Of a stretch of 64,000 nt of DNA, positions 5,095 to 63,900 are shown piece by piece (within the stretch, counting starts at the first letter, position 1; each line of letters starts with the position of its first letter). The position numbers and the translations under genes were made by a program. Where the stretch lies: assembly GCF_004010195.1 (NCBI RefSeq), contig NC_057719.1:9649112-9713111 (forward strand). The letters run 5' to 3'. Source of the DNA: Chiloscyllium plagiosum. Taxonomy: Eukaryota. Under the pieces are notes generated by a model. The model was given only the letters and a program-made list of their open reading frames with translations. It did not search any database and had not been told where the DNA came from.

Positions 5095-5445
5095 AGGGAG
5101 GTGAAGGCCTAGTGATATTATTGCTAGACTGTTAATCCAGAGACTCAAGTAATCTTCTTGCGAACTGGGTTTGAACCTCGGCATGGCAGGTCGTGGAATG
5201 TGAATTCTACAAAAATCCAGAATTAAGAATCTAACCATGAGTCGATTGTTGTAAAAACCCATCTGAGTCACTAATGTCCTTTATAGAAGGAAACTGCCAT
5301 CCTTACCTGGTCTGCCCTACATATGACTCCAGACCCACAGCAATGTGGTTTACTTTCAACTGCCCTCTGGGCAATTAAGGATGGGTAATAAATGCTGGCC
5401 TAGCCAGTGACACCCACATCCTGTGAGTGAATAATAAAAAAAACA
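5095..5445 (+). mobile_element. tRNA-derived SINE sharing body and tail with the LINE at 48612-52285
   Basis: tRNA-like head, body aaaaacccatctgagtcactaatgtcc...gactccagacccacagcaatgtgg, tail ggcaattaaggatgggtaataaatgctggcc...gaataataaaaaaa. Confidence 0.8.
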
Positions 5446-9639: not shown

Positions 9640-10592
9640 ATGTGAGCATAAGAGGTACAGTTAGTAAGTTTGCAGATGACACCAAAATTGGAGGTGTAGT
9701 GGACAGCAAAGAGGGTTACCTCAGATTACAACAGGATCTTGACCAGATGGGCCAATGGGCTGAGAGGAGTGGCAGATGGAGTTTAATTCAGATAAATGCA
9801 AGGTGCTGCATTTTGGGAAAGCAAATCTTAGCAGTACGTATACACTTAATGGTAAGGTCCTCGGGAGTGTTGCTGAACAAAGAGACCTTGGAGTGCAGGT
9901 TCATAGCTCCTTGAAAGTGGATTTGCTGGTAGACAGCATAGTGAAGAAGGCGCTTGGTATGCTTTCCTCTATTGGCCAGAGTATTGAGTACAGGAGTTGG
10001 GAGGTCATGTTGCGGCTGTACAGGACATTGGTTAGGCCACTGTTGGAATATTGCGTGCAATTCTGGTCTCCTTCCTATCAGAAAGACGTTGTGAAACTTG
10101 AAAGGGTTCAGAAAAGATTTACCAGGAAGTTGCCAGGGTTGGAGGATTTGAGCTATGGGGAGAGGCTGAACAGGCTGGGGCTGTTTTCTCTGGAGCATTG
10201 GAGGCTGAGGGGTGACCTTATAGAGGTTTACAAAATTATGGGGGGCATGGATAGGATAAATAGACAAAGTCTTTTCCCTGGGGTCGGGGAGTCCAGAACT
10301 AGAGGATATAGGTTTAGGGTGAGAGGGGAAAGATATAAAAGAGACCTAAGGGGCAACTTTTTCACGTAGAGGGTGGTATGTGTATGGAATGAACTGCCAG
10401 AGGAAGTGGTGGAGGCTGGTACAATTGCAACAGTTGAAAGGCATTTGAATGGGTACATGAATAGGAAGGTTTTGTAGGGATATGGGCCGGATGCTGGCAG
10501 GTGGGACTAGATCGGGTTGGGATCTCTGGTCGGCATGGACGGGTTGGACTGAAGGGTCTGTTTCCATGCTGTACATCTCTATGACTCTATGA
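9640..10592 (+). mobile_element. HER1/CR1 LINE, 5'-truncated (RT C-terminal half and 3' UTR)
   Basis: SKFADDTKIGG motif, then MEFNSDKCKVLHFG...LYRTLVRPLLEYCVQFWSP...RLRGDLIEVYKIM...RGNFFT; tail gtttccatgctgtacatctctatgactctatgac. Confidence 0.95.
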
Positions 10593-12040: not shown

Positions 12041-12560
12041 ACAACTGCCTGATCAAGACCTTCATTAACACAGCATCAAAGAAAACTCTACCTTTTAAGT
12101 TCCTTACTATAATAGGACAGTTTGCACACAATAAGTGTATTTAAGCACGTTATCATTCTACCCCAATGGACAGAGATTGACAGCTGTCCCTTCACAATTG
12201 AAACCATTGTCGAGTGTTGGAAAAACCCACCTGGTTCACTAATACCCTTTTGGGAAGGAAACTGCCGTCCTTACCTGGTGCAACCTACATGTGACTCCAG
12301 ACCCACAGCAACACAGTTACCTCAACTGCCGTCTGGAAAATTAGGGATGGGCAATAAATGTTGGCTCAGCCTGTGACGCCTACATTCCATTAATGAATGA
12401 AAATAAAATTCCACCTCATTAATATTCTGTTATTTCCATCGCGATATATTTTGTTATTAGAGAGATGATATTGGGCACATATTTCCTTCCTCCATGTTCC
12501 CCATCCTCCCCCACCCAGCCTCATTGATTCTGACCCCAGGGGTGGAATCTTCCCGAGGTA

Positions 12561-14699: not shown

Positions 14700-15150
14700 C
14701 AATTTCTGTTTTCATTAGTAATCCAGGCTAATGCTCGGAGGGAGAGGGGAGGGAAGATGGAGGAGAGGGTGAGGAGAGGGGGTTGGCAAAAGAGATTGGG
14801 AGAGTGAAGAGCAGAGGGCTGGAGGGGAAGGAAGGCGCACAGGTTCAAATCCTACCAGGGCAGCCAGTAGAATGTAACTTCCATTAATAAAACGTGGAAT
14901 TGAAAGCTGGTCTCCGTAACACAAACATGAAGCTATCATTGATTTCCATAAAAGCCCATCTGATTCTCTCAAATGCTTGAGGGAACAAATAAGCTGCCCT
15001 GACCTGTCCTGGCCAGACCCAGAGCAAGGTGGCTGAATCTTAGCTGCCATTTGAAATGGCCTTGTGAGCTACATGGTACAAGAATTATTAGAAGGGCAAC
15101 AAATATTGGACTTCCCAGTGACAGCTACCTTCCCAAGATGAACAAAAACA
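14700..15150 (+). mobile_element. Diverged copy of the 5095-family SINE, interrupted by a purine-rich insert at about 14738-14835
   Basis: agtaatccaggctaatgctc...aggttcaaatcctacc...aagcccatctgatt...gccatttgaaatggcc...gggcaacaaatattgg. Confidence 0.6.
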
Positions 15151-20004: not shown

Positions 20005-20345
20005 GTGTCATACAAAATAACACACACCAACTCCTGTTCCTCCATTGCCTTGTACACATTGACCTGCACTGACTCCTCGTTCATCAGCATTTCAATTATG
20101 GAATATTCGCTTTTGCTTTCAATTCCTAGCAAGGCCTCATGTCTCTGTGACACTGTTACCCCTCCAGCCCTATCACCACACAAGGGTGTCTCGCCAATCG
20201 CTGATATTAAACACTTTCACAACCCAGCCCCTACACTCTGGAATTCCATTCCCAAACCCCTCCTCCTCCTCTCTCCCCACACCTCACTTCCTTTAAGACA
20301 GTCGTTAAGACCCATCTCTCTGACTGAGCCTTTATCATCTGTCCT
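20005..20345 (+). mobile_element. Old L2-type LINE 3' fragment
   Basis: Degenerate LHWL-like motif (ctgcactgactc), PAPTLWNSIP and tttaagacagtcgttaagacccatctc (FK..LKT.L), typical of the L2 ORF2 end. Confidence 0.55.
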
Positions 20346-22178
20346 AAAAAATGCCCTCTGAAATAACTCCACAGAGGCTGGTATTCAGCACTCTGGGCAT
20401 TGCCCACCAACACAGCTCTGTCTACACCCAATCCTGGCCACCAGACATAACGTCTTGCCAACAGCTTCCCGTGGATAAGCCTGGTGGAGTTCAGACAGAA
20501 TCTGGTGCAGACCTTTGCTTGGTACAAATACTCTCGCTCCTCATAAATAATATGCTGTCCTCTACGGTGAGCTGGTCTCACCGTATCCACAAAGGGTTCA
20601 ATTCTTTCAGATCCCCTATCACCACCAGCTATTGTAGTTTTGCCAGGGCTGAATCTTTTTGAGTCCACATTCTTATATTGCCAGGGGTGACCGGAAGGGT
20701 GTCCAGAAAGTTTAAAACCAGAACGGAGTCTTCCAGTGACAGCACCACCAGTGGTGTATCTGTCAGCAGGAAGATAGTAGTAGAACTTTCTCACACCAAG
20801 TATTACTACCAAAGCTTCCTTCTCTACCTGGGCATACTTGCACTCTGTATTAGCCAAAGTCCAGGAAACAAATGCTTTTGGTGGTTCTCTCCATTGGGCC
20901 ATCTGTGAGCCAACATTACCCTGATACCATACAGGGAGGCATTGCATGTCAGCATCAGATCTCTCTTGGGATCATACTGTGCCAAAACCTTTGATGATGA
21001 TCGCAGCTTCTTCACTTCCCTCATGCCAATGTCTTGGCTACGTGACCATTTCCAACAATGACCCATTTTTAGGAGTTAATGCAAAGGTGCTAGGATGGAA
21101 GCCAGGTTATGTATTAACTTTTTGTTGATAAGTCATCAATCCAAGACGCAAGCTCCAGTATACATGTGGGAGCTTGGGTACCTTTGGTCACCCTCACTTT
21201 ATCTTCCAACGGGTGTAACCCGGTCTTATTGACTCTGTACCCTAAGCAGGTCACTTGTGGTGCCGGGAACACACATTTTTCCCTTCTAAAGTGTACGGTC
21301 ACCTGGGAGAAATGTTTAAGCACTATGACCAGGTTCCCTAAGTGTTCTTTTATTGCTCCTCCATGTTACTAGCATGTCATCCAGATAAGTGGCGATTTGG
21401 GGTAGACCTTGAAAATGTTCTCCATCATCTGCTGACAAATGGCACAGGTTGATGATACCCCAAAAGGCAGTCTCTTATATTGGTATAAAGTCTTATGGGT
21501 ATTAATTGTAGCATACTGCTGGGAATCCTCATCTGACTGCAATTGCCGGGGTGCAGCTCATCTCCAGCTTTGTGAAGGATCGATCCCCTGTCAGCTGCAT
21601 GTATAAGTCCTCAATGAGAGGGATTGGGTATTTATCCAGCTGCAAAAGGCAGTTTACCGTTCATTTAAAATCCCCACAAAGCGAACAGTCTCACCGGGCT
21701 TCACGATCAGGAGCAATGCTGCTCATTCTGCAAACTAGTCTGGTTTGATGATTCCTTTGCTTTCTAGCCTCCTGATTTCTACCTCTACTTTTGCCCGTAA
21801 GGCAAATGGCACTGGGTAGACATTGCAGAATCGTGGAATTGCTTCCTTGTCAACATGCAAGGTGGCCTTGGCTCCTTTGACAGTCCCGAGACCTTCCTGA
21901 AAAACTTCCAGGTATTTAATTAGGACTCCACTCAGGCAACACTTTCTCACGAAAAATGTTGTGTCAGTCAAGGTGAACCTTTCTCAACCAGTTTTGCCCT
22001 GTCAAGCCTGTCCAAGCCTTTTACTGTGATCAGTAGGAACTGAATAAGCTGCTTCTCATACAAACCAGAACTAAAGGTTGTACCCTTAAGCTGTAAAGGT
22101 TCCCCAGTGTAGGTTATCAATCCAGCTGAGGTCTTATGCAATCTTAAGGGTTTGAGTCCAGAGTGAAGTTTGTTAAAG

Positions 22179-22603
22179 CTGAAAATGTGTTGCTGGAAAA
22201 ACGCAGCAGGTCAGGCAGCATCCAAGGAGCAGGAGAATCAACGTTTCGGGCATGAGCCCTTCTTCAGGAATGAGGAAAGTGTGCCAAGCAGGCTAAGATA
22301 AAACGTAGGGAGGAGGGACTTGGTGGAGGGCGTTGGAAATGCGATAGGTGGAAGGAGGTTAAGGTGAGGGTGATACGGTGAGGGTGATATGCTGGAGTGG
22401 GGGTGGGGGCGGAGAGGTCAGGAAGAAGATTGCAGGTTAGGAAGGTGGTGCTGAGTTCGAGGGTTGGGACTGAGGCAAGGTGGGGGGTGGGGAAATGAGG
22501 AAACTGGAGAAATCTGAGTTCATCACTTGTGGTTGGAGGGTTCCTAGGCAGAAGATGAGGCACTCTTCCTCCAGCCGTCGTGTTGCTATGGTCTGGCGAT
22601 AGA
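22179..22603 (-). mobile_element. Penelope-like element 3' fragment (GIY-YIG C-terminus, UTR, hammerhead) inserted in Gypsy pol
   Basis: Minus frame RQTIATRRLEEECLIFCLGTLQPQVMNSDFSSF; core ctgaagaagggctcatgcccgaaacgtt; TSD tgaagtttgt(t/g)aaag at 22164-22178 and 22604-22618. Confidence 0.88.
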
Positions 22604-23754: not shown

Positions 23755-23886
23755 CCTCCTGAAGAAGGGCTTTTGCCCGAAACGTTGAGTTTCCTGCTCC
23801 TTGGATGCTGCCTGACCTGTTGTGCTTTTCCAGCACCACTCTAATCTAAACTCTGGTTTCCACCATCTGCAGTCCTCACTTTTGCT
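23755..23886 (+). mobile_element. 132-bp PLE-derived insertion in the Gypsy LTR
   Basis: Perfect 13-bp TSD cagctctcagagt at 23742-23754 and 23887-23899. Confidence 0.9.
23756..23789 (+). ncRNA. Minimal type I hammerhead ribozyme motif
   Basis: CTC-CTGAAGA-A-GGGC tttt GCCC-GAAA-CG-TT-GAG; stem I CTC/GAG, 4-bp stem II, palindromic ACGT stem III. Confidence 0.75.
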
Positions 23887-25004: not shown

Positions 25005-25705
25005 TCTTATTCACTCATGGCATCACTGGCTGGACCAATATTATTGCCCATCCCTAACTGACCAGATGGCATCAAGGGTTAACCACATTGCTATGGGTCT
25101 GGAGTCGCATGTAGGCCAGATCAGGTGAGGATGGCAGTTTCCTTCCCTCAAGCAGGTTGGTGAACCAGATGGGCTTTTTCCTGACAACCAGCAAATGTTT
25201 CATGAACATCATTAAACTCTGATTTACAAATTATTATTGAATTCAAATGCCACTGTCTGCCAAGGTGGGATTCAAACCCAGGCCCCCAGAACACTACTTG
25301 GGGTCTCTGGATTAATACGGTGCCTCAGTGGTTAGCACTGCTGCCTCACAGCGCCAGGGACCCTGGCTTGAATCCAGCCTCGGGTGACTGTCTGTGTGGA
25401 GTTTGCACATTCTCCCTGCGTCTACGTGGGTTTCCTCCAGGTGCTCTGGTTTCCTCTCACAGTCCGAAGATGTAGAGGTATGGTGGATCAATCATGCTAA
25501 ATTTCCCATAGTGTACAGGGATGTACAGGTTAGGTAGATTAACCAAGGGGAAATGTAGGTCTAGGGTGACAGAGTCAAGGTAGGGTCTGGGTGGGATGGT
25601 CTTCGGATGGTCAGTGTGGGCTCGATGGGTTGAATGGCCTGCTTCCATACTGTAGGGGTTCTGTGAAAATAATTCAGAGATAATACCACTCAGCCGTCAC
25701 CTTCC
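25005..25705. mobile_element. Minus-strand 5095-family SINE with a plus-strand HE1 (25318-25665) nested in its head
   Basis: ttattgcccatccctaactg...ggtctggagtcgcatgtaggccaga...ctctggattaata, then HE1, then gataataccact. Confidence 0.8.
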
Positions 25706-26514: not shown

Positions 26515-26840
26515 TCTTTTCATTCACTCACAGGATAAGGGGGTGGCTGGTTAGGCCAACATTTATTGCCCATCACTAATTGCCCAGAGGGCAGTTAAGA
26601 GTCAACCACAACGCTGTGAGTCTGGAGTCACATTTATACCAAACCAGGTAAGGATGGCAGTTTCCTTCCCTGAAGGACATTCGTGAGCCACATCGGTCTT
26701 TCTAACAATTGATAACGGTTTCCTGGCCATCGTTAGATTCTTAATTACAGATTCTTTTGCAATCAAATTCCATCACCAGCCACAGCAGGGTTCAAACCCG
26801 GATACCCAGAACGTTAGCTGGCTCTCTGGATTAATCATCT
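26515..26840 (-). mobile_element. 5095-family SINE
   Basis: atttattgcccatcactaattgcccagagggcagttaagagtcaaccac...gggttcaaacccgg...ctctggattaat. Confidence 0.85.
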
Positions 26841-28188: not shown

Positions 28189-28395
28189 CGAGAGAAAGTG
28201 AGGGCTGCAGATGCTGGAGGTCAGAGCTGAAAATGTGTTGCTGGAAAAGCGCAGCAGGTCAGGCAGCATCCAAGGAACAGGAGAATCGATGTTTCGGGCA
28301 TAAGCCTGAAGAAGGGTTTATGCCCGAAACGTCGATTCTCCTGCTCCTTGGATGCTGCCTGACCTGCTGCGCTTTTCCAGCAACGCATTTTCAGC
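28189..28395. mobile_element. Palindromic PLE-derived insertion with a hammerhead core at its centre (28306-28333, +)
   Basis: Inverted arms at about 28225-28304 and 28312-28396; 12-bp TSD ttggagggatat at 28177-28188 and 28396-28407. Confidence 0.9.
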
Positions 28396-29567
28396 TTGGA
28401 GGGATATTGGCCAGGTGTAGACAGGTGGGACGAGATTAGTTGGTGATTATGGCCTGCATGGACTGGTTGGACGGAAGCATCAGTTTGCGTGCTGAATGCC
28501 TCTCCAATTTCATTGCTGTGGATGTTGGAAATCAGAAACAAGAACTGAAATTACTGGAACGAGAAAGGGTCACTAGACTTGACACGCAAACTCTGCTTTC
28601 TCTCCACAGTTGCTGCCAGACCTGCTGAGTTTCTCCTTTGCTGGCAAGCGCACAGCAAAGGAGACCATTTGTCTTTTGTGCTAGCTCTCTAAAATCCACT
28701 TCGTCCCATTTCCTCACTCTTTTGAGTTCTGTTGAGGCTTCTCATCTTGTACTCATCAGGGCAATTTGCAAGAAAGATCGAAGCAAGTCAATGTATAGAA
28801 TGTAATAAACAGACCCAAAAACTGCTGGAGAAACTCAGCATGTCTGGCAGCATCTGCAGAGTGAGAAACAGAGTCAATGTTTTGAGTGTGGTGACCCATC
28901 TTCAGAACTGGACTCGACTGGTCTCAAAAATTACCTCTGATCCTTTCTCCACAGATGCTTCCTGATCTGCTTTTGTTTGTTTCAGATCATCAGTATCAGC
29001 AATTCTTTATTTTATAATGTTATTAGTAGCCAATTCACTGATGAAATTTGACTGAATGTGTTTTCAGGTGGAGCATTCCAGTTTATAACAACTCGATGTA
29101 AGGAATAAAGAAAAGCTTCACTTCACCATTCCTAATGCTTTGCCAACATATTCAACCTCTATGCTTTGCGTATCCTTCATTAACTCAGCTGTTTCTCCCA
29201 TTTATTCTGCCAAATGCACCCGAGTATAAAATTCAGTGTCTGAGCAGGTTAACATCTGTGGTTAACAGAAGTTGCTGGAAAAGCTCAGCATGTCTGGCAG
29301 CATCAGTGAAGAGAGATCAGAGTTAATATTTTGGGTCCAGTGTCCCTTCCTCAGAACTTTAATAACTGTGGAATTCACTGCTCCAAAACGTGAGGGATGC
29401 TGAGACACTGAATAAATTTGAGGGGGAGATAGATAGATTTTCAAAATAATAACAGGTTAAAAGGTAATGGAGAGCGGGCAGGAAAGTGGAGCTGGGTCCA
29501 GGATGAGATCAGCCATGATCACATCAAATGATGGAGCAGGCTTGTGGGATTGAATTGTTCATATGTG

Positions 29568-30649: not shown

Positions 30650-31910
30650 CCGTAGTAGGCTGCTTGACTTGACTCTGTTAAAATAAAAGCCAACATTCCC
30701 ATTTACCTCCTTTATTACCTGATGAACATGGATGCTAGCTTTTTGTGGTTCATATAAGATAGCTCTTTTATCTGCAGTCTTTCTCCATTTAATAATTTTC
30801 AGCTCTTCTATTCTTCCTGCCAAAGTGCATAACCTAACATTTCCCCATATTGTATTCATTCTCCTAAGTTTTTACCCACTTACCTCTGTCCATACCCCTC
30901 TTTGTGTCATCCTCATTCTCTGTCTTCTCATCTATCTTTTGTCTCATCTGCTAACTTGGCTATAATACATTCACCTTTCTATTCAAATCATTAGCATACA
31001 TTTTACTTTTTTAAAAAATCACTCATGACAGCTGACTGGCATTTATTGTCTGTCCCTAGTTGCCCTTGAACTATGTGGCTTGTATGCCAATTCAGAGGGC
31101 AGTTGAGAGACAACCACATTTCTATATGCAAGCCAGACCAGGTGAAGATGGCAGATTTCCTTCACTGAAGGACATTAGTGAACCAGATGGGTTTTTTCGA
31201 CAATTGTCAACCAGTAGCTTCTTAATTCCAGACTTATTCTTTAATTTGAATTCCACCAACTGCCACTATGGGATTCAAACTTGGTTCCACAAATCGTTAG
31301 CTGAGTTCCTGGGTTAATAACCCCGCGTGCTAATACCACCAGGAGAAAGTGAGGACTACAGATGCTGGAGATCAGAGTCAAAAAGTGTGGCACTGGAAAA
31401 ACACAGCAGGTCAGGCAGCATCCGAGGAGCAGGAGAGTTGACTGTTCGGACACAAGCCCTTCATCAGCCTCTCCTGCTCCTCTGATGCTGCCGGATCTGA
31501 TGTGCTTTTCCAGCAGGCCATCACCTCCCCCAAATAATTATGGTCTTAGCACCAATCCCTGTGGTAATCCAGTAGCTTGGAAATGCCTACCTTATTCAAA
31601 CTGTCTGCTTTCTATTGGTTAGCAATCGTCTGGCCATGCTCATATACCAACTCCAACACCAAGGCAATTACATTTTTAAGTAACCTAAAGTTTGGTACCT
31701 TACCAAACACTTTCTGAAAATCCAAATATATTACTTCCCCTTTATCTAACCTACTTGTTACTTCCTCAAAAAATTCTAGTAAATTTTTCAGGCATTATAT
31801 CCCCTTTGTGAAGTCACACCCGAACTGCTTGATCGTATAATGCATTTCAAAATGCTCTGCTATTAAAGCCTTTTTAACAGATTCTAAAATTTTCTCAGTA
31901 ACAGATGTTA
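30650..31910 (-). mobile_element. Old CR1 RT-region fragments interrupted by a SINE (31015-31340) and a PLE palindrome (31341-31515)
   Basis: ttcttcctgccaaagtgcataacc (reverse of V(M)HFGRKN); ccaatccctgtggtaatcc (reverse of G(L)PQGLVL); aaacactttctgaaaatccaaatat (reverse of YLDFQK(V)F). Confidence 0.65.
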
Positions 31911-33721: not shown

Positions 33722-33820
33722 AATTCCTGATGAAGGGCTCCGGCCCGAAACGTCGATTTTCCTGCTCCTCAGATGCTGCCTAATCTGCTATGCTTTTCCA
33801 GCAACACACATTCAACTCTG
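33722..33820 (+). mobile_element. PLE terminal fragment with intact hammerhead core (33727-33754)
   Basis: aattc-CTGATGA-A-GGGC tccg GCCC-GAAA-CG-TC-gattt. Confidence 0.8.
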
Positions 33821-37196: not shown

Positions 37197-37932
37197 GAGT
37201 CATAGAGATGTACAGCATGGAAACAGACCCTTCGGTCCACCTGTCCATGCCAACCAGGTATCCCAACCCAATCTAGTCCCACCTGCCAGCACGCGGCTCA
37301 TATCCTTCCAAACCCTTCCTATTCATATACCCATCCAAATGCCTCTTAAATGTTGCAATTGTACCAGCCTCCACCACTTCCTCTGGCAGTTCATTCCATA
37401 CATGTACCACCCTCTGCGTGAAAAAGTTGCCCGTTAAGTCTCTTTTATATATTTCCCCTTTCACCCTTACCCTATGCCCTCTAGTTCTGGACTCCCCGAC
37501 CTCCAGGGAAGAGACTTTGCCTATTTATCCTATCCATGCCTCTCAACATTTTTTAAACCTCTATAAGGTCACCCCTCAGCCTCCAACACTCCAGGGAAAA
37601 CAGCCCCAGCCTGTTCAGCTTCTCCCTGCAGCTCAAATCCTCCAACCCTGGCAACATCCTTGTAAATCTTTTCTGAACCCTTTCAAGTTTCACAACATCT
37701 TTCCGATAGGAAGGAGACTTGAACTGCACGCAATATTCCAACAGTGGCCTAACCAATGTCCTGTACAGCCGCAACTCCCAACTCCTGTATTCAATATTCT
37801 GACCAATAAAGGAAAGCATACCAAATGCCTTCCTCACTATCCTATCTACCTGCGACTCCACTTTCAAGGAGCTATGAACCTGCAGTCCCAGGTTTCTTTG
37901 TTCAGCAACACTCCCTAGGACCTTACCATTAA
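37197..37932 (-). mobile_element. HER1/CR1 LINE, 5'-truncated
   Basis: ORF 37553-37978 (-) LNGKVLGSVAEQRNLG...LYRTLVRPLLEYCVQF...RLRGDLIEV is close to the copy at 9776-10369; tail at 37197. Confidence 0.95.
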
Positions 37933-46315: not shown

Positions 46316-46905
46316 AGGTCATGTTGTGGCTGTACAGGACATTGGTGAGGCTACTATTGGAATACTGCATTCAGTTCGGGTCTCCCTGTTATAGAAAAGA
46401 TGCTGTGAAACTTGAAAGGGTTCAGAGAAGATTTACAAGGATTTTGCCAGGGTTGGAATGTTTGAGCGATAGGGAGAGGCTGAATAGGCTGGGGCTGTTT
46501 TCCCCGGAGCATCGGAGGCTGAGGGGTGACGTTATAGAAGTTTATAAAATCATGAGGAGCATGAATAGGGTGAAAACTTATGTCTTTTCCCTGGGGTGTG
46601 GGAGTCCAAACTAAAGGGCATAAGTTTAAGGTGAGAGGGGAAAGATTTATAAGGGACCGAAGGGACAATGTTTTTATGTAGATGGTAGTGTGTGTATGGA
46701 ATGAGCTGCCAGAGGAGGTGGTGGAGACTGGCACAATTACAACATTTAAAAGGCATCTGGATGGGTTGATGAGTAAGAAGGGTTTAGGGGGATTTGGGCC
46801 AAATGCTGGCAAATGGGACAAGATTAATCTAGGATATCTGATCAGCATGGATGAGATGAACTTAAGGGTCTGTTTCTATGCTGTACATCTCTCTGACTCT
46901 ATGCT
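46316..46905 (+). mobile_element. HER1/CR1 3' fragment
   Basis: LYRTLVRLLLEYCIQFGSP...RRLRGDVIEVYKIM; tail atgctgtacatctctctgactctatg. Confidence 0.92.
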
Positions 46906-48159: not shown

Positions 48160-48395
48160 AAAACAAAGGACTGCAGAGGCTAGAATCATGAAACTAAACC
48201 AGAAATTGCTGGAGAAACTCAGCAGGTCTGGCAGCATCTGTGGAGAAAGAAACAGAGTCAGCATTTCAGGTCCAGCGACCCTTCCTCAGGAACCGTCTGA
48301 AGAGGGGCACTGGACGGGAAACCTTAACACTGTTTTTCTCTCTCCACAGATGATGCCAGACCGGCAGAATTTCTCCAGCAATTTCTGCTTTTGTA
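48160..48395. mobile_element. PLE-derived inverted repeat with decayed hammerhead cores on both strands
   Basis: ttcaggtccagcgacccttcctcaggaac / tctgaagaggggcactggacgggaaaccttaac. Confidence 0.75.
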
Positions 48396-49961
48396 TTAGG
48401 TTGGTGCACATGTGACTCTTCCAGTATATGACCTAAAATATTTGTTCACTAGTGAAGTCTGACTGCGGTCCCAATTAAAATTAGAGTGAAGAATTGCAAT
48501 TAGATACACCAGACTATGCAAACTTTGTGCAAATGAAAGAGATAAAAGAAAGCTGATGAATGAGGAGAGAATAAAATACATTTTTCACAAATACTTTTTT
48601 TCACATGTATATTTTTGTTCAATTGCGGGACTTGGCTGCCCAGTATTGATAGCCCATCCCTATTTGCCCTTGAGGGCCCTTGAGGGTGGTGAGTTGCCTT
48701 CATGAATCGCTGCAGTCCACTTGCTGTGGGTTGACCCACAATGCCACTGGGGAGGGAATTCCAGGATTTTGACCCAACGACTGTGAAGGAATGGCGGTAT
48801 ATTTCCAAGTCAGAGTGGTGAGTGGCTTGGAGGTGAACTTGCAGGTGGTGGTGTTCCCAAGAATCTGTTGCCCTTGTCCTTCTAGATGGACAGGCGCTGT
48901 CTAAGAATCTTTGATGAATTTCTGCAGTGCATCTTGTAGATAGTACACACTGCGGCTAATGAGTGCCAGTGGTGGAGATATTGAATGTTTGTAGATGTGG
49001 TGCCAATCAAGCAGGTTGCTTTGTCCTGGATGGTGTCAATCTTCTTGAGTGTTGTCAGAGCTGCACCCATCCAGGCAAGTGGAGAGTATTCCATCACACT
49101 CCTGACTTGTGCCTTGTAGATGGTGGATGGACTTTGGGGTGTCAGGAGGTGAGTTACTCGCCACAGTATCCCTAGTCTCTGACCTGCTCTTGTAGCCACT
49201 GTGTTTATGTGGTGAGTCTAATTGAGTTTCTGGTCAATGGTAACCCCAAGGATGTTGACACTGAGGGATTCACTGATGGTAATACCGTTGAATGTCAAAG
49301 GGTGGTGGTTAGAGTGTTTCTTGTTGGTGATGGTCATTGTCTGGCATTCATGTGGCATGAATGTTACTTGCCACTTGTCGGTCGAAGCCTGGATTTTGCC
49401 CAGATCTTGTTGCATTTGAGCACAGACTGCTGCAGTATCTGAGGAGTTCTGAGTGGCGGTGAACACTGTTCAATCATCGGTGAACATCCTGACTTTTGAC
49501 CTTATGACAGAGGGAAGGTCATTGATGAAGCAGCTGAAGATTGTTGGGCCTAAGACACTACCCTGAAGGACTCCTGCAGAGATGTCCTGAAGCTGAGATG
49601 ACTGACCCTCCACATCCACAACCACCTTCCTTTGTGCCAGGTGTGACTCTAACCAGTGGAGTGTTTGCCTCCTGATCCCCATTGATTCCAGTTTTGCCAG
49701 GGCTCCTTGATGCTACACTCGGTCAAATGCACCCTTGATGTCAAGGGCTGTCACTCTCACCTCACCTCTGGAATTCAGCTCTTTCATCCATGTTTGAACC
49801 AAGGCTGTAATGAGATCAGGATCTGGGTGACCTTGGCGAAGCCCAACCTGGGCGTCACTGAGCAGATAGTCGCTGAGCAGGTGCTGCTGGATAGCACTGT
49901 TAATGACCTCTTCCATCAATTCACTGATGATGGAGAGTACACTGATTGGCTTGTAATTGGT

Positions 49962-50177
49962 TGGAAATGTGTTGCTGGAAAAGCGCAGCAGGTCAGGCAG
50001 CATCTAGGGAACAGGAGAATCGACGTTTCGGGCATTAGCCCTTCTTCAGGAACCTGAAGAAGGGCTAATGCCCGAAACGTCGATTCTCCTGTTCCCTAGA
50101 TGCTGCCTGACCTGCTGCGCTTTTCCAGCAACACATTTCCATCTCTGATCTCCAGCATCTGCAGACCTCACTTTCTC
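49962..50177. mobile_element. Young palindromic PLE-derived insertion in the LINE RT
   Basis: Perfect 89-bp inverted arms (49962-50050 / 50053-50141); 15-bp duplication cttgtaattggttgg at 49950-49964 and 50178-50192. Confidence 0.95.
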
Positions 50178-51729
50178 CTTGTAATTGGTTGGGTTGGATT
50201 TGTCTTGCTGTTTGTGTACAGGACATACCTGGGCAATTGTCCACATTGTTGGGTAGATGCCAGTGCTGTAACTGTACTGGAAGAGCTTGGCTAGGGGAGC
50301 AGCATGTTCTGGAGCACGCCTTCAGTACTACTGCCGGAATGATATCAGGGCCCATTACCTTTGCAGTAACCAGTGCATTCAGTCGTTTCTTGATATCACG
50401 TGGAGCGAATCAAATTGGCTGGAGACTGGTATCTGTGATGCTGGGGACCACCGGAGGAGCCCAAGATGGAACAGCCACTCGGCACTTCAGAATGAAGATA
50501 TTTTTGAATGTATCAGCTTTATCTTTTGCACTGATGTGCTGAGCTCCTCCATCATTGATGATGGGGATATCCGTGGAGTCTCCTCCTCCAGTGAATTGTT
50601 TAATTGTCCACCACCATTCATGACTGGATGTGGAATGACTGCAGAGCTTCAATGTGATCCGTTGGTTGTGGGATCGCTTAGCTCTGTTAATCACTTGCTG
50701 TTTAAGCCATTTGGCATGCAAGTGGTCCTGTTTGGTACCTTCACCAGGTTAACACCTCATTTTTAGGTGCTCCTGGCATGCCCTCCTGCACTCTCCATTG
50801 AACCAGGGTTGATCCCCTGGCTTGATGGTAATGGTTGAGTGGGGATATGCCAGTCCATGAGGTTACAGATTGTTCTGGAGTACAATTCTGCTGTTGTTGA
50901 TGGCCCACAGCACCTCATGGATGCCCAGTCTTGAGCTGCTAGATCAGTTTGAAGTCTGTCCCATTTCGCACAGTGATATTGCCACACAGCACAATGGAGG
51001 TTATTCTCAATGTGAAGGTGGGACTTTGTCTCCACAAGGACTGTGCAGTGGTCACTTTTACCTATATTGTCATGGACAGATGCTTCTGCAGCCAGCAGAT
51101 TGGTAAGGATGAGGTCGAGTATGTTTTTACCTTTTACTGGTTCCCTCACCATCTGCCCCAGACCCAGTCTGGCAGTTATATCCTTTAGGACCCAACCAGC
51201 TCGAACAGTAATGCTGCTGCCAAGCCACCCTTGATGGTGGACAGTGAAATCCCCCACCCAGAGTACGTTTTGCACCCTTGCCAGCCTCAGTGTTTCCTCT
51301 AAGTGTTGTTCAACATTGAGGAGCACTGATTCATCGGCCGAAGGAGGATGGTACGTGGTAATCAGTAAGAGGTTTCCTTGCCCATGTTTAACCTGAAGCC
51401 ATAAAACTTCACTGGGTCCAGACTCGATGTCAAGGCCTGCCAGGGCAACTCCCTCCAACTGTATCCCACTGTGCCACCACCTCTGCTGGGTCTATTCTGC
51501 CGGTGGGACAGGACATATCCAGGGATGGTAATGGTGGTGTCTGGGGTGTTATCTGTAAGGTATGATTCTGTAAGAATGACTATGCTGGGCTGTTGCTTGA
51601 CTAGTCTGTGAGACAACACTCCCAATTTTGGGACTAGCCCCCAGGTGTTAGTAGGGAGGACTCTGCATAGTCAAAAGGGCTGTTTGTGTTTTTGCCATGG
51701 TCATTTTCGGTTCCGAGGTCAATGCTAGG

Positions 51730-52160
51730 TGGTCCATCCAGTCTCATTTCTTTGTTGTGACTTCCGAACGATTGATACAATTGAGTAGCTTGCTAGGCCA
51801 TTCAGAGGGCAGCTGAGAGTCAACCACATTGCTATGGCTCTGGAGTCACATGGAGGCCAGATCAGGTAAGGATGGCAGATTTCCCTCCCGAAAGAACATC
51901 AGTGAATTAGATGGGTTTTTCCGACAATTGACAATGGTTTCATGGTCCATCCAGTCTCATTTCTTTGTTGTGACTTCCGAGCGATTGATACAATTGAGTG
52001 GCTTGCTAGGCCATTCAGAGGGCAGCTGAGAGTCAACCACATTGCTATGGCTCTGGAGTCATATGGAGGCCAGATCAGGTAAGGATGGCAGATTTCCCTC
52101 CCGAAAGAACATCAGTGAATTAGATGGGTTTTTCCGACAATTGACAATGGTTTCATGGTC
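51730..52160 (+). repeat. 213-bp tandem duplication in the LINE 5' region
   Basis: Units 51730-51942 and 51943-52155; identical ORF starts at 51829 and 52042; TGGTC microhomology. Confidence 0.95.
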
Positions 52161-52364
52161 ATCAGTCGATCCTAAATTCCAGATTTTTAAAAATTTAATT
52201 CAAATTCCACCATGTGCCGTGACAGGATTTAAATCCCCATAATATTATACTGGCTTTCTGGATTAATTGTCGAGCAAATAAGATGCGACGAGGAACAACC
52301 CTGTAATTGTTTTGATATTCTGTTGGTCTTATATATTTTCTAATCAACCTGTGTAGGAATATTT

Positions 52365-52580
52365 ACTGAAGACAACAAATGCTGGAGATCACAGCAGGTC
52401 AGGCAGCATCCATGGAGAGACAGCGAGCTAATGTTTCAAGTCTAGATGACTCTTCATCACAGCACGTTGAAGCTCCAATGAACAGTCATCTACACTCGAA
52501 ATGTTAGCTGGCTGTCTTTCCACAGATGCTGCCTGAACCGTTGTGACCTCCAGCATTTATTGTTTTCAGTACAGATTGCA
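52365..52580. mobile_element. PLE-derived inverted repeat (GAGTC-stem family)
   Basis: Minus strand gtgatgaagagtcatctagacttgaaacattagc; plus strand atgaacagtcatctacactcgaaatgttagc. Confidence 0.75.
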
Positions 52581-53724
52581 GTAATTTGCTCCGACTTGCT
52601 CAGGTCCATAATTACATATCTCTGGAGCTGGGAGAACTTGAAGCTGGGCCTCCTGGCCCAGAGATAGGGACAGTACCACTGCAAAACAAGAACACTTCTG
52701 TACGTTTACTTAATGTCTTTTTTCTAAACTTTACCCATTTATCTCATGATTCTTTGCTCTGCTTGGCTCCCGCTGAAACCCCTGACTGTTTGCGGGTTAT
52801 ACTCCATTGTTGTACATTCTTGTATGGCTGCTGCTGCTATGATTTCTACAAAGACACCTCATCCAAAATCAAATACGTCTTAAATTACAGTCAACCTGAA
52901 AATTGGGAATTTGCTGATAAATAATGCTTTTTTTCCCTGAAAATTAAAACAAAGGTTCTTGCGACAGTGTCATGCTCTGAAACCCCTCTGAAAGAATGTT
53001 GCTACAAAGGCTGACAGGGGAATGAAATTGGCTCTGTACACAGTAAAATTCTAATTTGCAGAATGTTTCAGTAGTTGCAGAGAAACAAAGTGTCTTACTT
53101 TTTCACATGTGCCTACAAATAGCATTGCCTAAGGGAAACTGGAGCATTTAAGGTGCCTCTCACAAAGAAAACAGTTCATCTGAATAATAAGCATCAAGGT
53201 TTTAATTGCTTTCTTTGCCTTGTTTAACTCTCACCTACTGCAGTGATTTTACTGAATAACTTTGGATGAAGGGATCATCAGTTCAAATCCCCTTTGACAT
53301 TTTGGGGAGGAACCACTTGATCAGGTTCAACAGAATAAGCGTTTAAAAGCATTTTATCGTGGGAAAGTTTTTTGAGGAAAACAACGTTGGCCCAAGGCAC
53401 AGAAGCCACCAATGATGGTAATTCATTTGTTTTAGGATGTCCAAGAGGCATTTTCCTCATATACCGACATACATCCTGATTTACCTTTACGTTTTGGTAC
53501 TTTTTGCAAATTGCCCTGATGAGAGCAGGGCAAAGGCCTTTGATAAAATGAGTCTTCTTTCAGCAACGTTCAAGTATTGGTCTGAAGAAAGCAGCTGAGG
53601 CCAAAACATTGAATGCTTCAAGAAGGAGTTCAATATAGTTCTTAGGGCTAAAGGGATTGTACGGTATGAGGAGAAAGTAAGAGCAGGGGACTGAGTTGAA
53701 TGATCAGCCAGTGTTTTTTATGCA

Positions 53725-54200
53725 CTTTTTTTATTCACGAGTGGGACACGATATTGTTGGCAGGCCAGCACTTTATTGCCTGTCCCTAGCTGCCCATGAG
53801 AAGTTGGTACTGAGTTGCCTTCTTGAATTGCTGCAGTAGGTAGACTCATAATGCTGTTAGGGAGTGAATTCCAGGATTTTTGACCCAGTGACAGTGAAAG
53901 AATGGGGACACATTTGCAAGTCAGGATGGTGAATGGCTTGGAGGGAAACTTCAGGATGATAGTTTTCCTATGTATCTGCTGCCCTTGTCCTTTAAACGAA
54001 AATGGTCATGCATTTGGAAGGTGCTGCCTAAGGATCTTTAGTGAATTTCTGCAGTGCATCTTATAGATAGTACACACTGCTATCACTGAGCATTGTTGGT
54101 GGAGGGAGTGGATGTTTGTGGATGTGAGGTCAATCAAAGGGGGCTGCTTTGTCTTGAATGGTGTCAAGCTTCCTGAGTGTTGTTAAAGCTGCTCACATTG
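53725..54200 (-). mobile_element. 3' fragment of the same Zenon-like LINE family
   Basis: gaattccaggatttttgacccagtgacagtgaaagaatgg...gaatttctgcagtgcatcttatagatagtacacactgc parallels 48750-49060. Confidence 0.85.
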
Positions 54201-59989: not shown

Positions 59990-60945
59990 CGGCGCAGTCT
60001 GGAGGCAAGGTCGGCACAGTCTCGCAAGGGTGGGGGAAGGAGGGGTCTTGGTGCAGTCTGGAGGGAAGGACCCAGTGCGTCTAGAGAGGAGGTCTCGGTG
60101 TAGTATGGAGAGGAGGTCTTGGTGCGGTCTGGAGGGGCAATGTCGTTGTGGTCTGGAAGGGAGGACCTAGTTACTCTGGAGAGGAGGTCTCAGTACAGTC
60201 TGGACGGGTTCTCAGTACAGTCTGGAGGGAAGGTCTCAGTGCGGTCTGGGCGGGGACCTCAGTGTGGTCTGGGCAGGGGGTCTCAGTACGGTCTGGATAT
60301 AGGGTCACAGTGCGATCTAGGCAGGGGGTCTCAGTACAGTCTGGAGGAGCTTTACAGTATGGTCTGGGTGGGGGTCTCAGTACAGTCTGGGCGGGGGCCT
60401 CAGTACGGTCTGGGTGGGTGTCTCAGTACAGTCTGGGTGGTGGTCTCAGTACAGTCTGGGCGGGGTCTCAGTATGGTCTGGGCAGGGGTCTCAGTGCGGT
60501 CTGGAGGGAGGGTCTCAGTGCGGTCTGGGCGGGGGTTTCAGTGTGGTCTGTGCGGGGGTCTCAGTACGATCTGGGTTGGGGTCTCAGTGCGGTCTGACTG
60601 GGGGTCTCNNNNNNNNNTGGGCGGGGGTCTCAGTGCGGTCTGGAGGGAGGGTCTCAATACGGTCTGGGTGGGGGTCTCAGTACAGTCTGGGTGGGGGTCT
60701 CAGTACGGTCTGGGCGGGGGGTCTCAGTACAGTCTGGGTGTGGGTCTCAGTGCGGCCTGTGCGGGGGTCTCAATCCGGTCTGGGCGGATGTCTCAGGGCG
60801 GTCTGGGCGGGTGTCTCAGGGCGGTCTGGGCGGGTGTCTCAGTGCGGTCTGGGCGGGTGTCTCAGTGCGGTCTGGGCGGGGGTCTCAGTGCGGTCTGGGC
60901 GGGGGTCTCGTTACAGTCTGGAGAGGAGTGTGTTGGTGCAGTCTG
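59990..60945 (+). repeat. G-rich minisatellite, about 23-bp unit GGGGTCTCAGT(G/A)C(G/A)GTCTGGGCG
   Basis: Dozens of tandem units, most homogeneous at 60760-60910; N gap at 60609-60617. Confidence 0.95.
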
Positions 60946-63900
60946 CTTGAAGGACTGTAATGCTGATCGTTTAATTCTTAATTTCTTTCTAATATAGTCC
61001 TATGACACTGTACCTATGTAGCTTTGTACCTGAGATGGTGCCATAAGTGCTGACTTGTGAACTTTTCACTGCACTCATGTGAGTACATGTGACAATAAAG
61101 CCAACTCTAATTCTGATGGTAATCTTGACAAATACCCTGATGATTGGGAAGGCAGCTGACAACATACCACATGGCAGGAGATAAAAGGGTTCAATTGCTT
61201 GTTTTGACTCCAGTCTGAATGGGAATGGATTCTTGACCCTGCCTGAACGTGACACATTTTCTGGAATCAGACAGGCGCTCACTCAGGCCCAGTTTTACGA
61301 AGGTTTTCAGATGTAAGTCTATGTCAGCCAATGGTAGGTGCAACATGGCCTGTTGCTGGTCCAGCAAAAACATGATTGGCCACTTCAACATGGCCTGAAG
61401 GAAAAAAAAGGTTCATTAAAGTTTTTGTCGACCTTATGCCGAAAAGGTTAGGTGTTTTGTGGCACCTTGTGGTGGACTTATTTGACACTCTCTGCATTCA
61501 GGAATTTCAGCTCCTTACCACTATTGTCCTTGATGGTCTTGGGGAGCAACAGTAACTGGGATGGGGGAAGGGGAGTGGAAGGAAACAGGCTGTGTCCGCC
61601 AACACCAACGACAGTGGGGAAGTGGGGAGAGGACATTGTGGGTGAGAGCAAGCATTCTGTCCAGAATTGTGTTATATTTTCCCCTTCTATCCTTTAGAGA
61701 TCGTGAAGGTGTGGTGATGAAACAAAATGCTCCTGATGTTTTAAAGATATTATTGATTGAAATAATTTGATACATGCAATAAGTTAATTAACCTATTTTG
61801 TGTAAATACCTCAACTTGGCTTAAATGCATTTATTTTATAAACAGAATTAACTGACCTGAATCAATGTTGTCAGAGACAGTGAAGTTAATTGTACTTGCA
61901 AGCAAATTCGTGGAGGGACAGTAGGTGAACTGGTTTTAGAGTTGAAATGTTTGTCAATGGATTATCCATGCCAAGTAGCACTCTCCTTCATCTCCATGGA
62001 TATCTCCTTATGTTCTACGGAGGTCCCTTCGCCAGAAAAGTAGGCAATAAGGAAATGTTGAAATCTGCGCAAAGACTTCACTGTAACTGAAATCTGGACT
62101 TTGTGTGTCCACATATCTTCCATTGATTTGGTTTTTGTATCTGATTGAGAACAGAATACTCTTAGGTTTCAGAGTCAACTTGGCTTTATTCGCAAGGCAA
62201 CTACCAATGACCAATCTTGTCTTACCTTTAGCTTAAAAGTAAATGAGAAATGCAAAGTCTAGGTGCCTAAACTGGCAGACTTGAATTGCTACTCCCAATT
62301 TACACTTGACATCAACAGGAAGCATTCAGTTTATGTCGCACAGTGATCACTAGATAGCATAACCACTATAATGGATACAATGATGAAGGAAAGCTTTGAT
62401 AGGATTAAACATTGACTGACGGTACTGGGACTCATTGAAAATTAGTAGGTTCAGTAAGACTCCTCTTCTGGGGTGGGCCAGAGGAGCAACAACATCTGCA
62501 TCATAAAACAATGTTAATTTCTTTTCTACTTTCTTCCCCCATTAGAAAATCAGTACAGACCTTGATTTTGTTTCGTCTTTCAAAAGTGCATCCTTTTTTT
62601 TTGTGAAATGTCCAAAATAATCCAATATGTTTTTCACAATATCAACACTTATTTGCAGCGTTGAAAAGGGTGAGGTTGAACCGTGAATTTGTATTTTAAA
62701 GAATGATGGGTCCATCTATTTGCCTAAACACATCAACACTGACCTTTCCAGCCTGATCAAATAATTAATTAACATTCTCAAAGGGGAGAGTCACTTTGTC
62801 CCCAAAGCTCTCACGAGCACATTTTTAAATTTGAAACTTTAATTTTTCCTTTATCATATGAAGCAAATGGAAATCATAAGAATTATGCAAATATATCTCT
62901 AATTACCAGCTTCCTTGCACTGGAATTTAGAATTCAGAATTAGGTTTATTAGAATTAGATTTACTGTCACATGTACTCAAGTACAGAGTACAGTGAAAAG
63001 TTTACAAAAGCCAAATTTCAGAACAAATGGTGTTAGTGAACATGCGAACTATGTTTTACCTCTCATCAACATGTTCAAGGAAGTCATTGCACACCTCTGG
63101 AGCTGAGGAGGGATGGGAAATTGAACACTGGGACTTACGGTCCAGAGGTAGGGACATTACTGCTGCACCTCAAGAGGACCGTCTCAGTGGAGATTTGAAG
63201 CAGCTGTTACAACAACAACAAAAAAAAAGCTGATGCACAATTGAACTCTCCTTCGATGTCCACTCTGGTTGAATTGTTTTGATGTGGAGAGCAGATATTG
63301 AGGTTCCAAATTTTGTTGGGGGAGGGGTGGTCGGATTTTGTGTGAGGAAGTGACACGAGGGAAGGCGCTCAAGGTGAGGTAATGCGAGCCAGCTGCAGGT
63401 TAGGTTAGTGCACTCTGTTCTCAGGGCTGTTTGCCAAGCGGGCCGCAGGCTTCAGGCCTTTGAAGGGTTGATAGCCATCTTTTGACTGATGACTCATGAA
63501 GCAATTTGGAAAACAAAAATTCAAGCGACAACTTAAAAGAAGCAATTACGTTTTATAAAACTACAAAATTTTACTCAAATGAAGAACGAACACCACTATC
63601 AAAAAACACGCACATTTACAAAATATTCCTTAAAACAGTTTCATATACGTATGAAACCCACCTGAGTAGGTCACAGCTCTTTCTTTTAAAAGAAGGAATT
63701 GTTATGGGAGCCCCATTACATTTGAGTGATTTCACCACGTCTCTGTAAGTATTTTACTAAAGAGTAGCTGTGACCTACTTGGCAGTGCTGACAGATATGG
63801 TTGCAAAAAACATGGTAGTTGCTCAAAAGATGGTCCATTTAAACATGGATTTCAAATCCAACATTTCATAGTCATCTCATATTGGAGAATAATTCCATGC

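Follow-up and report, generated by a model that had tools for sequence, protein, structure and literature searches.

A tRNA-like head at the 5' end of Zenon LINEs of sharks and rays, and its counterpart in a tRNA-headed SINE

The LINE copy analysed here begins with the head and body of a SINE, and this architecture is real, recurs throughout the known Zenon family of sharks and rays and has apparently gone unremarked there. The locus itself, located in the window (the whole stretch of 64,000 nucleotides from Chiloscyllium plagiosum that was analysed), is an ordinary decayed copy. Taken as a whole, the explanation that we prefer, i.e., a tRNA-headed LINE family that would be made by Pol III and would be the parent of SINEs, has about an even chance of being right (roughly 0.5). 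In the literature searched, which lay outside Repbase, Dfam, SINEBase and subscription journals, no coding LINE family was reported to carry a tRNA-derived head. The caveat of the preliminary description, that such an architecture might already be on record, applied in part: the family consensus is in print as Zenon, and the available text carries no remark on the head (PMC13343379).

Anatomy of the locus copy and of the window SINEs

The LINE copy lies on the minus strand from about 52285 to 48612 and is a decayed endonuclease and reverse transcriptase (RT) element without ORF1; collinearity with published consensuses, judged by eye, places its real 5' end at an expected position of about 52300. 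Its parts, and a second copy nearby, are as follows:

52200..52285, minus strand: tRNA-like head, decayed, with an anticodon-arm remnant and a B-box-like motif at 52235-52225; A box unrecognisable
52016..52199, minus strand: body common to LINE and SINE, stopping at the short SINE junction (ctgccctctg)
51943..52155, minus strand: tandem duplication unit 1, 213 bp, covering the greater part of the body and 73 nt of the LINE-specific leader
51730..51942, minus strand: tandem duplication unit 2, with 11 of 11 private changes in common with unit 1
51665..51802, minus strand: LINE-specific leader from the SINE junction to the endonuclease, in the endonuclease frame, with four stops in the locus copy
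50829..51664, minus strand: apurinic-type endonuclease region with one frameshift near 51455; Pfam Exo_endo_phos_2, E 6e-9
50178..50844, minus strand: linker up to the RT start, with frameshifts near 50835 and 50300
49965..50177, no strand: palindromic insertion, unrelated and young, 213 bp with 89-bp perfect arms
48704..49964, minus strand: RT and C-terminal region, Pfam RVT_1, interrupted by another frameshift and, within 49964-48897, by three in-frame stops
48612..48683, minus strand: 3' tail common to LINE and SINE, with a short A-rich end
53700..54198, minus strand: second LINE copy, 5'-truncated, matching the locus copy at 73% over 459 nt and sharing its tail

The homology from endonuclease (EN) to RT extends from 51664 to 48704 in five frame segments (tblastn) and is collinear over residues 25-949 of a 962-aa relative, with the frames broken in the locus LINE. 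The Pfam hits, the collinearity with the consensuses and the lack of any ORF of ORF1 size upstream of EN bear out the earlier assignment to a Zenon-type, ORF1-less element, and by these features and its sequence identity the copy is classed with elasmobranch Zenon (CR1 group). Its closest protein relative is a Rhincodon typus (whale shark) protein with 68-69% identity, and a hand count against the RhiTyp_Zenon-1 consensus gave 22 differences over ~180 nt (~88%). The palindromic insertion, not noticed in the preliminary description, is framed by a 15-bp target duplication (49950-49964 and 50178-50192) and breaks the ORF, as do the frameshifts and stops, because of which the copy is dead, i.e., neither coding nor autonomous, contrary to its first portrayal as a coding element that may be autonomous. 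A candidate target-site duplication around the LINE (at best 9/10 in AT-rich DNA) lay ~28 nt too far upstream and was rejected. The A-run at the 3' end comprises five residues in the locus LINE, seven in the second LINE copy and eight in the SINE at 5095.

The two duplication units (51730-51942 and 51943-52155) differ at three positions. Since both have all 11 private changes, scored against the SINE majority, in common, the duplication is local, recent and younger than the copy's decay. It had been overlooked in the preliminary description, which put EN within about 200 bp; in fact, the head lies ~350 nt from EN via the first body copy, and the EN match begins at 51664, 139 nt past the second body end (51803). 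The passage from body to EN without SINE tail, poly-A or ORF1, however, was observed as claimed. Subunit arrays exist in some ORF1-less elements (PMC13343379). A reading of the 213-bp repeat as such an array of the family was discarded on account of the common private changes and also of the seven consensus starts, none of which has a 213-bp repeat within 400 nt.

The LINE 5' part finds matches in seven or eight SINE-like repeats of the window. These repeats have the traits of SINEs, i.e., a tail common with the partner LINE, no coding sequence, a length within 100-700 bp and a high copy number, and include the following:

5095..5442, plus strand: SINE, most complete, short junction, about 350 bp
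26515..26835, minus strand: SINE, short junction; others of the short type near 12199, 25063 and 38703
31030..31330, minus strand: SINE, long junction, young-type copy (31075)
about 14840-15150, plus strand: SINE, long junction, older, old-type copy 15013

That the minus-strand LINE begins with the SINE head and body was confirmed by alignments of LINE 52277-52016 with SINE 5121-5369 (72% over 268 nt, E 4e-36) and SINE 26835-26585 (72% over 258 nt). Over head and body, LINE and SINE are 74-78% identical for five of six copies, as compared with 72-81% between SINEs, and the copy 15013 is an older outlier with 54-62% to all others. At the opposite end, the alignment of LINE 48683-48633 with the SINE tails beats all 300 shuffles in five of seven copies, consistent with the proposed identity of both tails, the exceptions being 15013 and 38703. 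The SINEs at 5095 and 26515 indeed join ctgccctctg directly to ggcaatt. In form, the SINE corresponds exactly to the first ~290-320 nt and the last ~60 nt of the LINE. Among the seven junctions visible in the window, five are short, joining body directly to tail, and two are long, extending ~30 nt further into the LINE 5' region.

The claimed tRNA-derived 5' end stands for the family, with seven of seven consensuses, whereas the locus copy retains only a B box with two mismatches (52235-52225), its A box being beyond recognition. Searches with ARAGORN and Rfam gave no tRNA call in its head or in the SINE at 5095. SINE heads of the window have a B box with 0-2 mismatches in all five scanned and an A box only at 2-3 mismatches. 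Hammerhead and HDV-like ribozymes, sought in the body by eye against known motifs, were incomplete or not conserved. A consensus fold of the body, based on six decayed copies, consisted of small hairpins only, and 2 of its 27 pairs covaried.

The head across the family and in raw reads

Zenon LINEs have been reported from elasmobranchs, coelacanth and hagfish; all of them lack ORF1 and end in poly-A, and the elasmobranch ones are in no repeat repository according to the authors (Stuart et al. 2026, PMC13343379). The supplement of that paper provides ten consensuses, including seven elasmobranch ones of 2.9-3.3 kb, and its Table S3, in which one cell is garbled, lists near-full-length copy denominators of 2313, 1419, 612, 396, 294 and 59 with 0-3 intact ORFs each. 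The term "tRNA" occurs nowhere in the portions available of the paper, its supplement text and its preprint.

We compared the first 400 nt of each published consensus by eye. All seven elasmobranch consensuses, from white shark, whale shark, catshark, dogfish (three) and stingray (CarCar_, RhiTyp_, ScyCan_ and HypSab_Zenon-1, SquAca_Zenon-1/2/3), have a head with A box and B box, followed by the same body, the leader and then EN, and the tRNA-like head is almost certainly a family-wide trait of elasmobranch Zenon. By eye, the B box is near-perfect (GGTTCRAATCC) in three of the seven and has one or two changes in the others. The white-shark consensus features a 5-bp stem with a 7-nt loop at the anticodon-arm position, followed by a long variable region, an arrangement that may point to a class II (Ser/Leu) tRNA. 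Moreover, the EN frame of the consensuses runs upstream via an arginine-rich stretch towards the body, and the lack of a common in-frame AUG, checked by hand, hints at an unconventional initiation, a reading that depends on the A-run lengths in the consensuses.

None of the three hagfish and coelacanth Zenon starts has an A/B-box head (by eye). Three distant relatives used as queries led to 16 metagenome loci at 23-37% identity, which are too distant to represent a sister lineage; a tRNA was found in none of the 16, and their upstream regions gave no BLAST match to head or body. Because an A/B-box pair was likewise missing from all ten upstream regions scanned, the head is best read as a lineage-specific acquisition. 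Further searches returned no stretch with the junction pattern in viral and prokaryote contigs, no relative of the close EN protein in metagenome or viral contigs and no homolog among longer proteins.

Raw genomic reads of the best-matching organism (1.93 Gb) were placed on 50200-51942 at 80% likeness; the choice of runs was guided by a sequencing-run list, in which 20 of 24 rows, under four organism labels, contain part of the stretch. Since this stretch is without the head, the reads cover body-to-LINE continuity only, and the linkage of head and LINE is based on the locus copy and the seven consensuses. Read depth was ~900-2400 over most of EN and linker and ~8,500 over the SINE-shared body, and fell to 115-255 in the LINE-specific leader (51675-51792) as compared with ~870 at the EN start. 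This dip may reflect the locus copy's divergence, or else 5' truncation or other 5' ends; no alternative 5' end appeared among the 24 loose ends listed out of ~9,850. If a genome of 3-4 Gb is assumed, these depths would put the LINE at thousands of copies and the copies that carry the body at more than ten thousand. At 51803, 2,839 reads depart into the SINE tail, i.e., the short join, and 364 reads cross 51800 into LINE-type (or long-junction) sequence.

These 364 reads, which stem from other copies, and the order of head, body, leader and EN in seven independent published consensuses both speak against a one-off chimera at the locus, in which a SINE would have inserted at, or recombined with, a 5'-truncated LINE. 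Such an origin could be suspected from the other local accidents in this copy (duplication and insertion) and from the lack of a convincing target-site duplication around it. We consider it extremely improbable and, by these comparisons, effectively refuted. The refuting case named beforehand, in which other long copies would lack the head, fails on the same seven consensuses.

Direction of descent and the transcribing polymerase

The anatomy does not fix the LINE as parent of the SINE, since a LINE capturing the 5' half of a SINE would give the same result. By eye, the young SINEs of the window carry whale-shark-type head variants and the old copy 15013 is dogfish-type, so the 5' ends of SINE and LINE appear to have evolved together. 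On balance, we lean towards a derivation of the SINE from the LINE and not the reverse. As an alternative, which we hold to be possible at clearly lower odds than even, a pre-existing tRNA SINE with a Zenon tail could have been the source of the LINE 5' end. Template switching in the shark/ray stem would have put the SINE's 5' half in place of the LINE 5' UTR, and both could have kept swapping 5' parts afterwards, a scenario compatible with either polymerase. A head followed by a 190-nt body is how SINEs are typically built, such a head is missing from other Zenons and the distant relatives, the same long breakpoint occurs in one SINE of the old type (15013) and one of the young type (31075), and module exchange is common in SINEs (PMC5499810), all of which would suit a capture. 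It is at odds with the young SINEs, which carry lineage-specific head variants of the whale-shark-type LINE and are as near to the LINE as to each other, as would simply be explained if SINEs re-derive from the current LINE. The existence of two junction types also argues against it, as do moth Zenons, which spawn internal-deletion derivatives repeatedly, with at least four origins (PMC6740152).

Repeated deletion from the current LINE explains the co-evolution of the 5' ends in SINE and LINE, with the moth Zenons as precedent. The long breakpoint in old and young SINEs is compatible with repeated deletion and also with a persistent SINE lineage that trades heads with the LINE.

In the reading that we prefer, with the LINE as parent, Pol III would start at the head of the Zenon LINE and read 3.3 kb through a T-run-poor template, and the resulting RNA, lacking a cap, would rely on cap-independent translation. 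The Zenon protein would then insert this RNA through target-primed reverse transcription that begins at the shared tail, and a template jump or recombination could drop the ORF, leaving promoter and tail as a ready-made SINE. As to whether Pol III drives the LINE, the scales are evenly poised in our view. The furthest-reaching form, in which elasmobranch Zenon would be an autonomous coding Pol III retrotransposon with a tRNA-derived internal promoter and cap-free translation throughout shark/ray history, giving rise to tRNA SINEs in one step via ORF loss, is offered tentatively and is rather doubtful. The shark-ray split dates back roughly 270-300 million years.

A role of Pol III is suggested by the A and B boxes, which persist in all seven consensuses from sharks and a ray, and by the consensus starts, which lie 5-10 nt ahead of the A-box motif in every case, i.e., about where a tRNA gene would begin. 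Both features fit less well with a LINE that has the head family-wide but is transcribed by Pol II, with the promoter situated in the conserved body or the flanking DNA. Here, the head could be a passenger, a TFIIIC-binding insulator or a 5'-end-fixing processing signal, and only the SINEs would use it as a Pol III promoter. This we regard as a realistic possibility that falls short of even odds. It is consistent with the better conservation of the body than of the head among the seven consensuses (by eye) and with the unusual translation that a 3.3-kb coding Pol III RNA would need. Furthermore, published descriptions assign the transcription of every characterised LINE to Pol II (PMC5786205, PMC10886601), as they do for non-LTR elements in general, and the processivity of Pol III is held to limit length to ~1.3 kb (PMC10886601).

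Additional evidence comes from T runs, for the same two readings. T runs terminate Pol III. Over the whole locus element, three sense-strand T runs compare with 6.2 (P 0.11) or 3.9 (P 0.43) expected, a non-significant depletion in line with Pol II. In the coding span (2,733 nt), by contrast, one sense-strand T4 run was found against 4.7 expected, and the O/E of 0.21 is the lowest among all comparisons, with values of 0.39-1.71 in the nine headless distant relatives and 0.66-1.84 in the 42 window tiles, for a span picked afterwards in one copy (~P 0.05 by Poisson, by hand). This T4 run is broken in 582 of 657 reads, and the three T runs look copy-specific, one being broken in the reads and two absent from the consensuses (by eye). 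T-run scarcity is a weak hint of Pol III transcription.

Two further points run counter to the Pol III view: without a cap, the RNA would have to reach the ribosome in some other way, and the locus copy's own head scores as no tRNA.

Significance and comparison with known systems

According to the prevailing view, LINEs are coding and transcribed by Pol II, and SINEs are non-coding Pol III chimeras of a small RNA and a LINE tail. A coding LINE family with a SINE head and thousands of copies across sharks and rays blurs this line, and a headed LINE would offer a one-step route to SINE birth. In this context, it becomes testable whether translation of a 3.3-kb Pol III RNA can be efficient enough to keep a retrotransposon going, and from which source SINE bodies originate. 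In addition, many "SINE" matches in elasmobranch repeat annotation would represent LINE 5' ends.

The published elasmobranch Zenon (PMC13343379) resembles the locus element in its collinear 5' 400 nt, in its length of 3.2-3.3 kb, in EN and RT, in the lack of ORF1 and in its A-rich end, and the available description is silent on a tRNA head, Pol III and a partner SINE; the locus copy differs by being degenerate, with a local duplication and an insertion. Among lepidopteran elements, the Persaeus SIDE, like the window SINE, is a short element consisting of Zenon 5' and 3' ends, brought together there by internal deletion (Wang et al. 2019, PMC6740152). Persaeus and its Zenon, however, are described there as having neither tRNA homology nor a Pol III promoter, whereas in the shark, where the head is already present on the LINE, a deletion would yield a tRNA-headed SINE. 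Zenon tails are also used by SINEs of bivalves and butterflies, and the LINEs concerned are not described as headed in the accessible parts of these reports (PMC11481361, PMC6685494).

Other tRNA-headed shark SINEs, i.e., SacSINE1 (a Deu-SINE) and HE1 (a V-SINE), were compared on the basis of published accounts (PMC5499810, PMC2746220, PMC3747384, PMC7245038). SacSINE1 measures 463 bp and has a Deu domain and an L2-type tail (L2-2_CM / CR1-4_DR-like), in contrast to the ~350 bp and the Zenon tail of the window SINE, and HE1 pairs with HER1, whereas the window SINE pairs with Zenon. The 12-nt Deu core motif had no match at up to one mismatch in the window, shorter motifs occurred at scattered places, and a published Deu alignment, compared by eye, revealed nothing beyond a faint likeness over ~35 nt. 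An identification of the window SINE as SacSINE1 was rejected, as the Deu motifs tested are absent and tail and length differ.

SINEs with bipartite bodies related to RTE and Vingi elements show the same match of body and tail to the 5' and 3' ends of a partner LINE (Kojima 2018, PMC5786205; Kojima 2020, PMC7245038). In the model proposed for them, a small-RNA head is added later to a non-autonomous derivative and the LINE is headless and transcribed by Pol II, while in sharks the coding element itself is headed. Finally, a Pol III promoter derived from a small RNA, which the Zenon head may be, occurs outside the classic SINEs in the TRIMp3 retroelements Cassandra, Helenus and Ajax (Kojima 2024, PMC10886601). 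These are non-coding LTR elements of at most ~1.3 kb, whereas the shark Zenon codes.

SINEs and unrelated repeats in the window

Apart from the SINE copies joining head and body directly to the LINE tail, the following SINE-like features stand out:
14840-15150 (+), old SINE copy with the long junction, which keeps about 30 nt more of the LINE 5' region
25320-25380, tRNA-like SINE head of a different type, opposite in orientation to SINE 25063 and adjoining its 5' end

The former shares 54-62% identity with the other SINE copies and resembles the dogfish-type Zenon head; it may mark an ancestral subfamily. The latter presumably resembles the shark HE1 head. Other repeats are:
9764-10441 (+), 37277-37918 and 46354-46875, pieces of the 3' region of a canonical CR1-type LINE, probably HER1-like
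20231-20971 (-), resembling part of a Gypsy-type pol in a decayed state
60050-61000, array resembling a minisatellite, rich in G and containing N gaps

Duplications in the LINE copy and distant relatives

51730-52155, tandem duplication of local origin, two 213-bp units that differ at 3 sites
48693-48674 (-), 10-bp tandem duplication ccctcaaggg immediately ahead of the LINE tail

The 213-bp duplication, whose boundaries are marked by a short tggac/gac-catg likeness, postdates the decay of this copy. The ccctcaaggg duplication is missing in the second, 5'-truncated copy.

The distant ORF1-less relatives L002 (1-554) and L003 (1-584) have in common a conserved non-coding 5' UTR stretch around GGCCCGAACCC...GGGAGGCTGCC...TGTATAATCCCG, possibly a structured RNA, for which Rfam gave no match.

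A palindromic insertion and its family

49965-50177, palindrome inside the Zenon LINE, 89-bp arms, 15-bp target duplication
Relatives near 2008-2129, 22177-22270, 23757-23882, 28192-28396, 31338-31467, 33724-33820, 48193-48394 and 52358-52577

Because its arms are 100% complementary and its target duplication is perfect, the copy within the LINE must be very young. The family is very abundant.

Rfam returned only hairpin-type noise for the palindromic repeat. Each arm carries a CTGAAGA...GAAAC spacing similar to that of a hammerhead ribozyme core, and we suspect a Penelope-like origin. The arms also resemble the nurse-shark NSRE1 probe.
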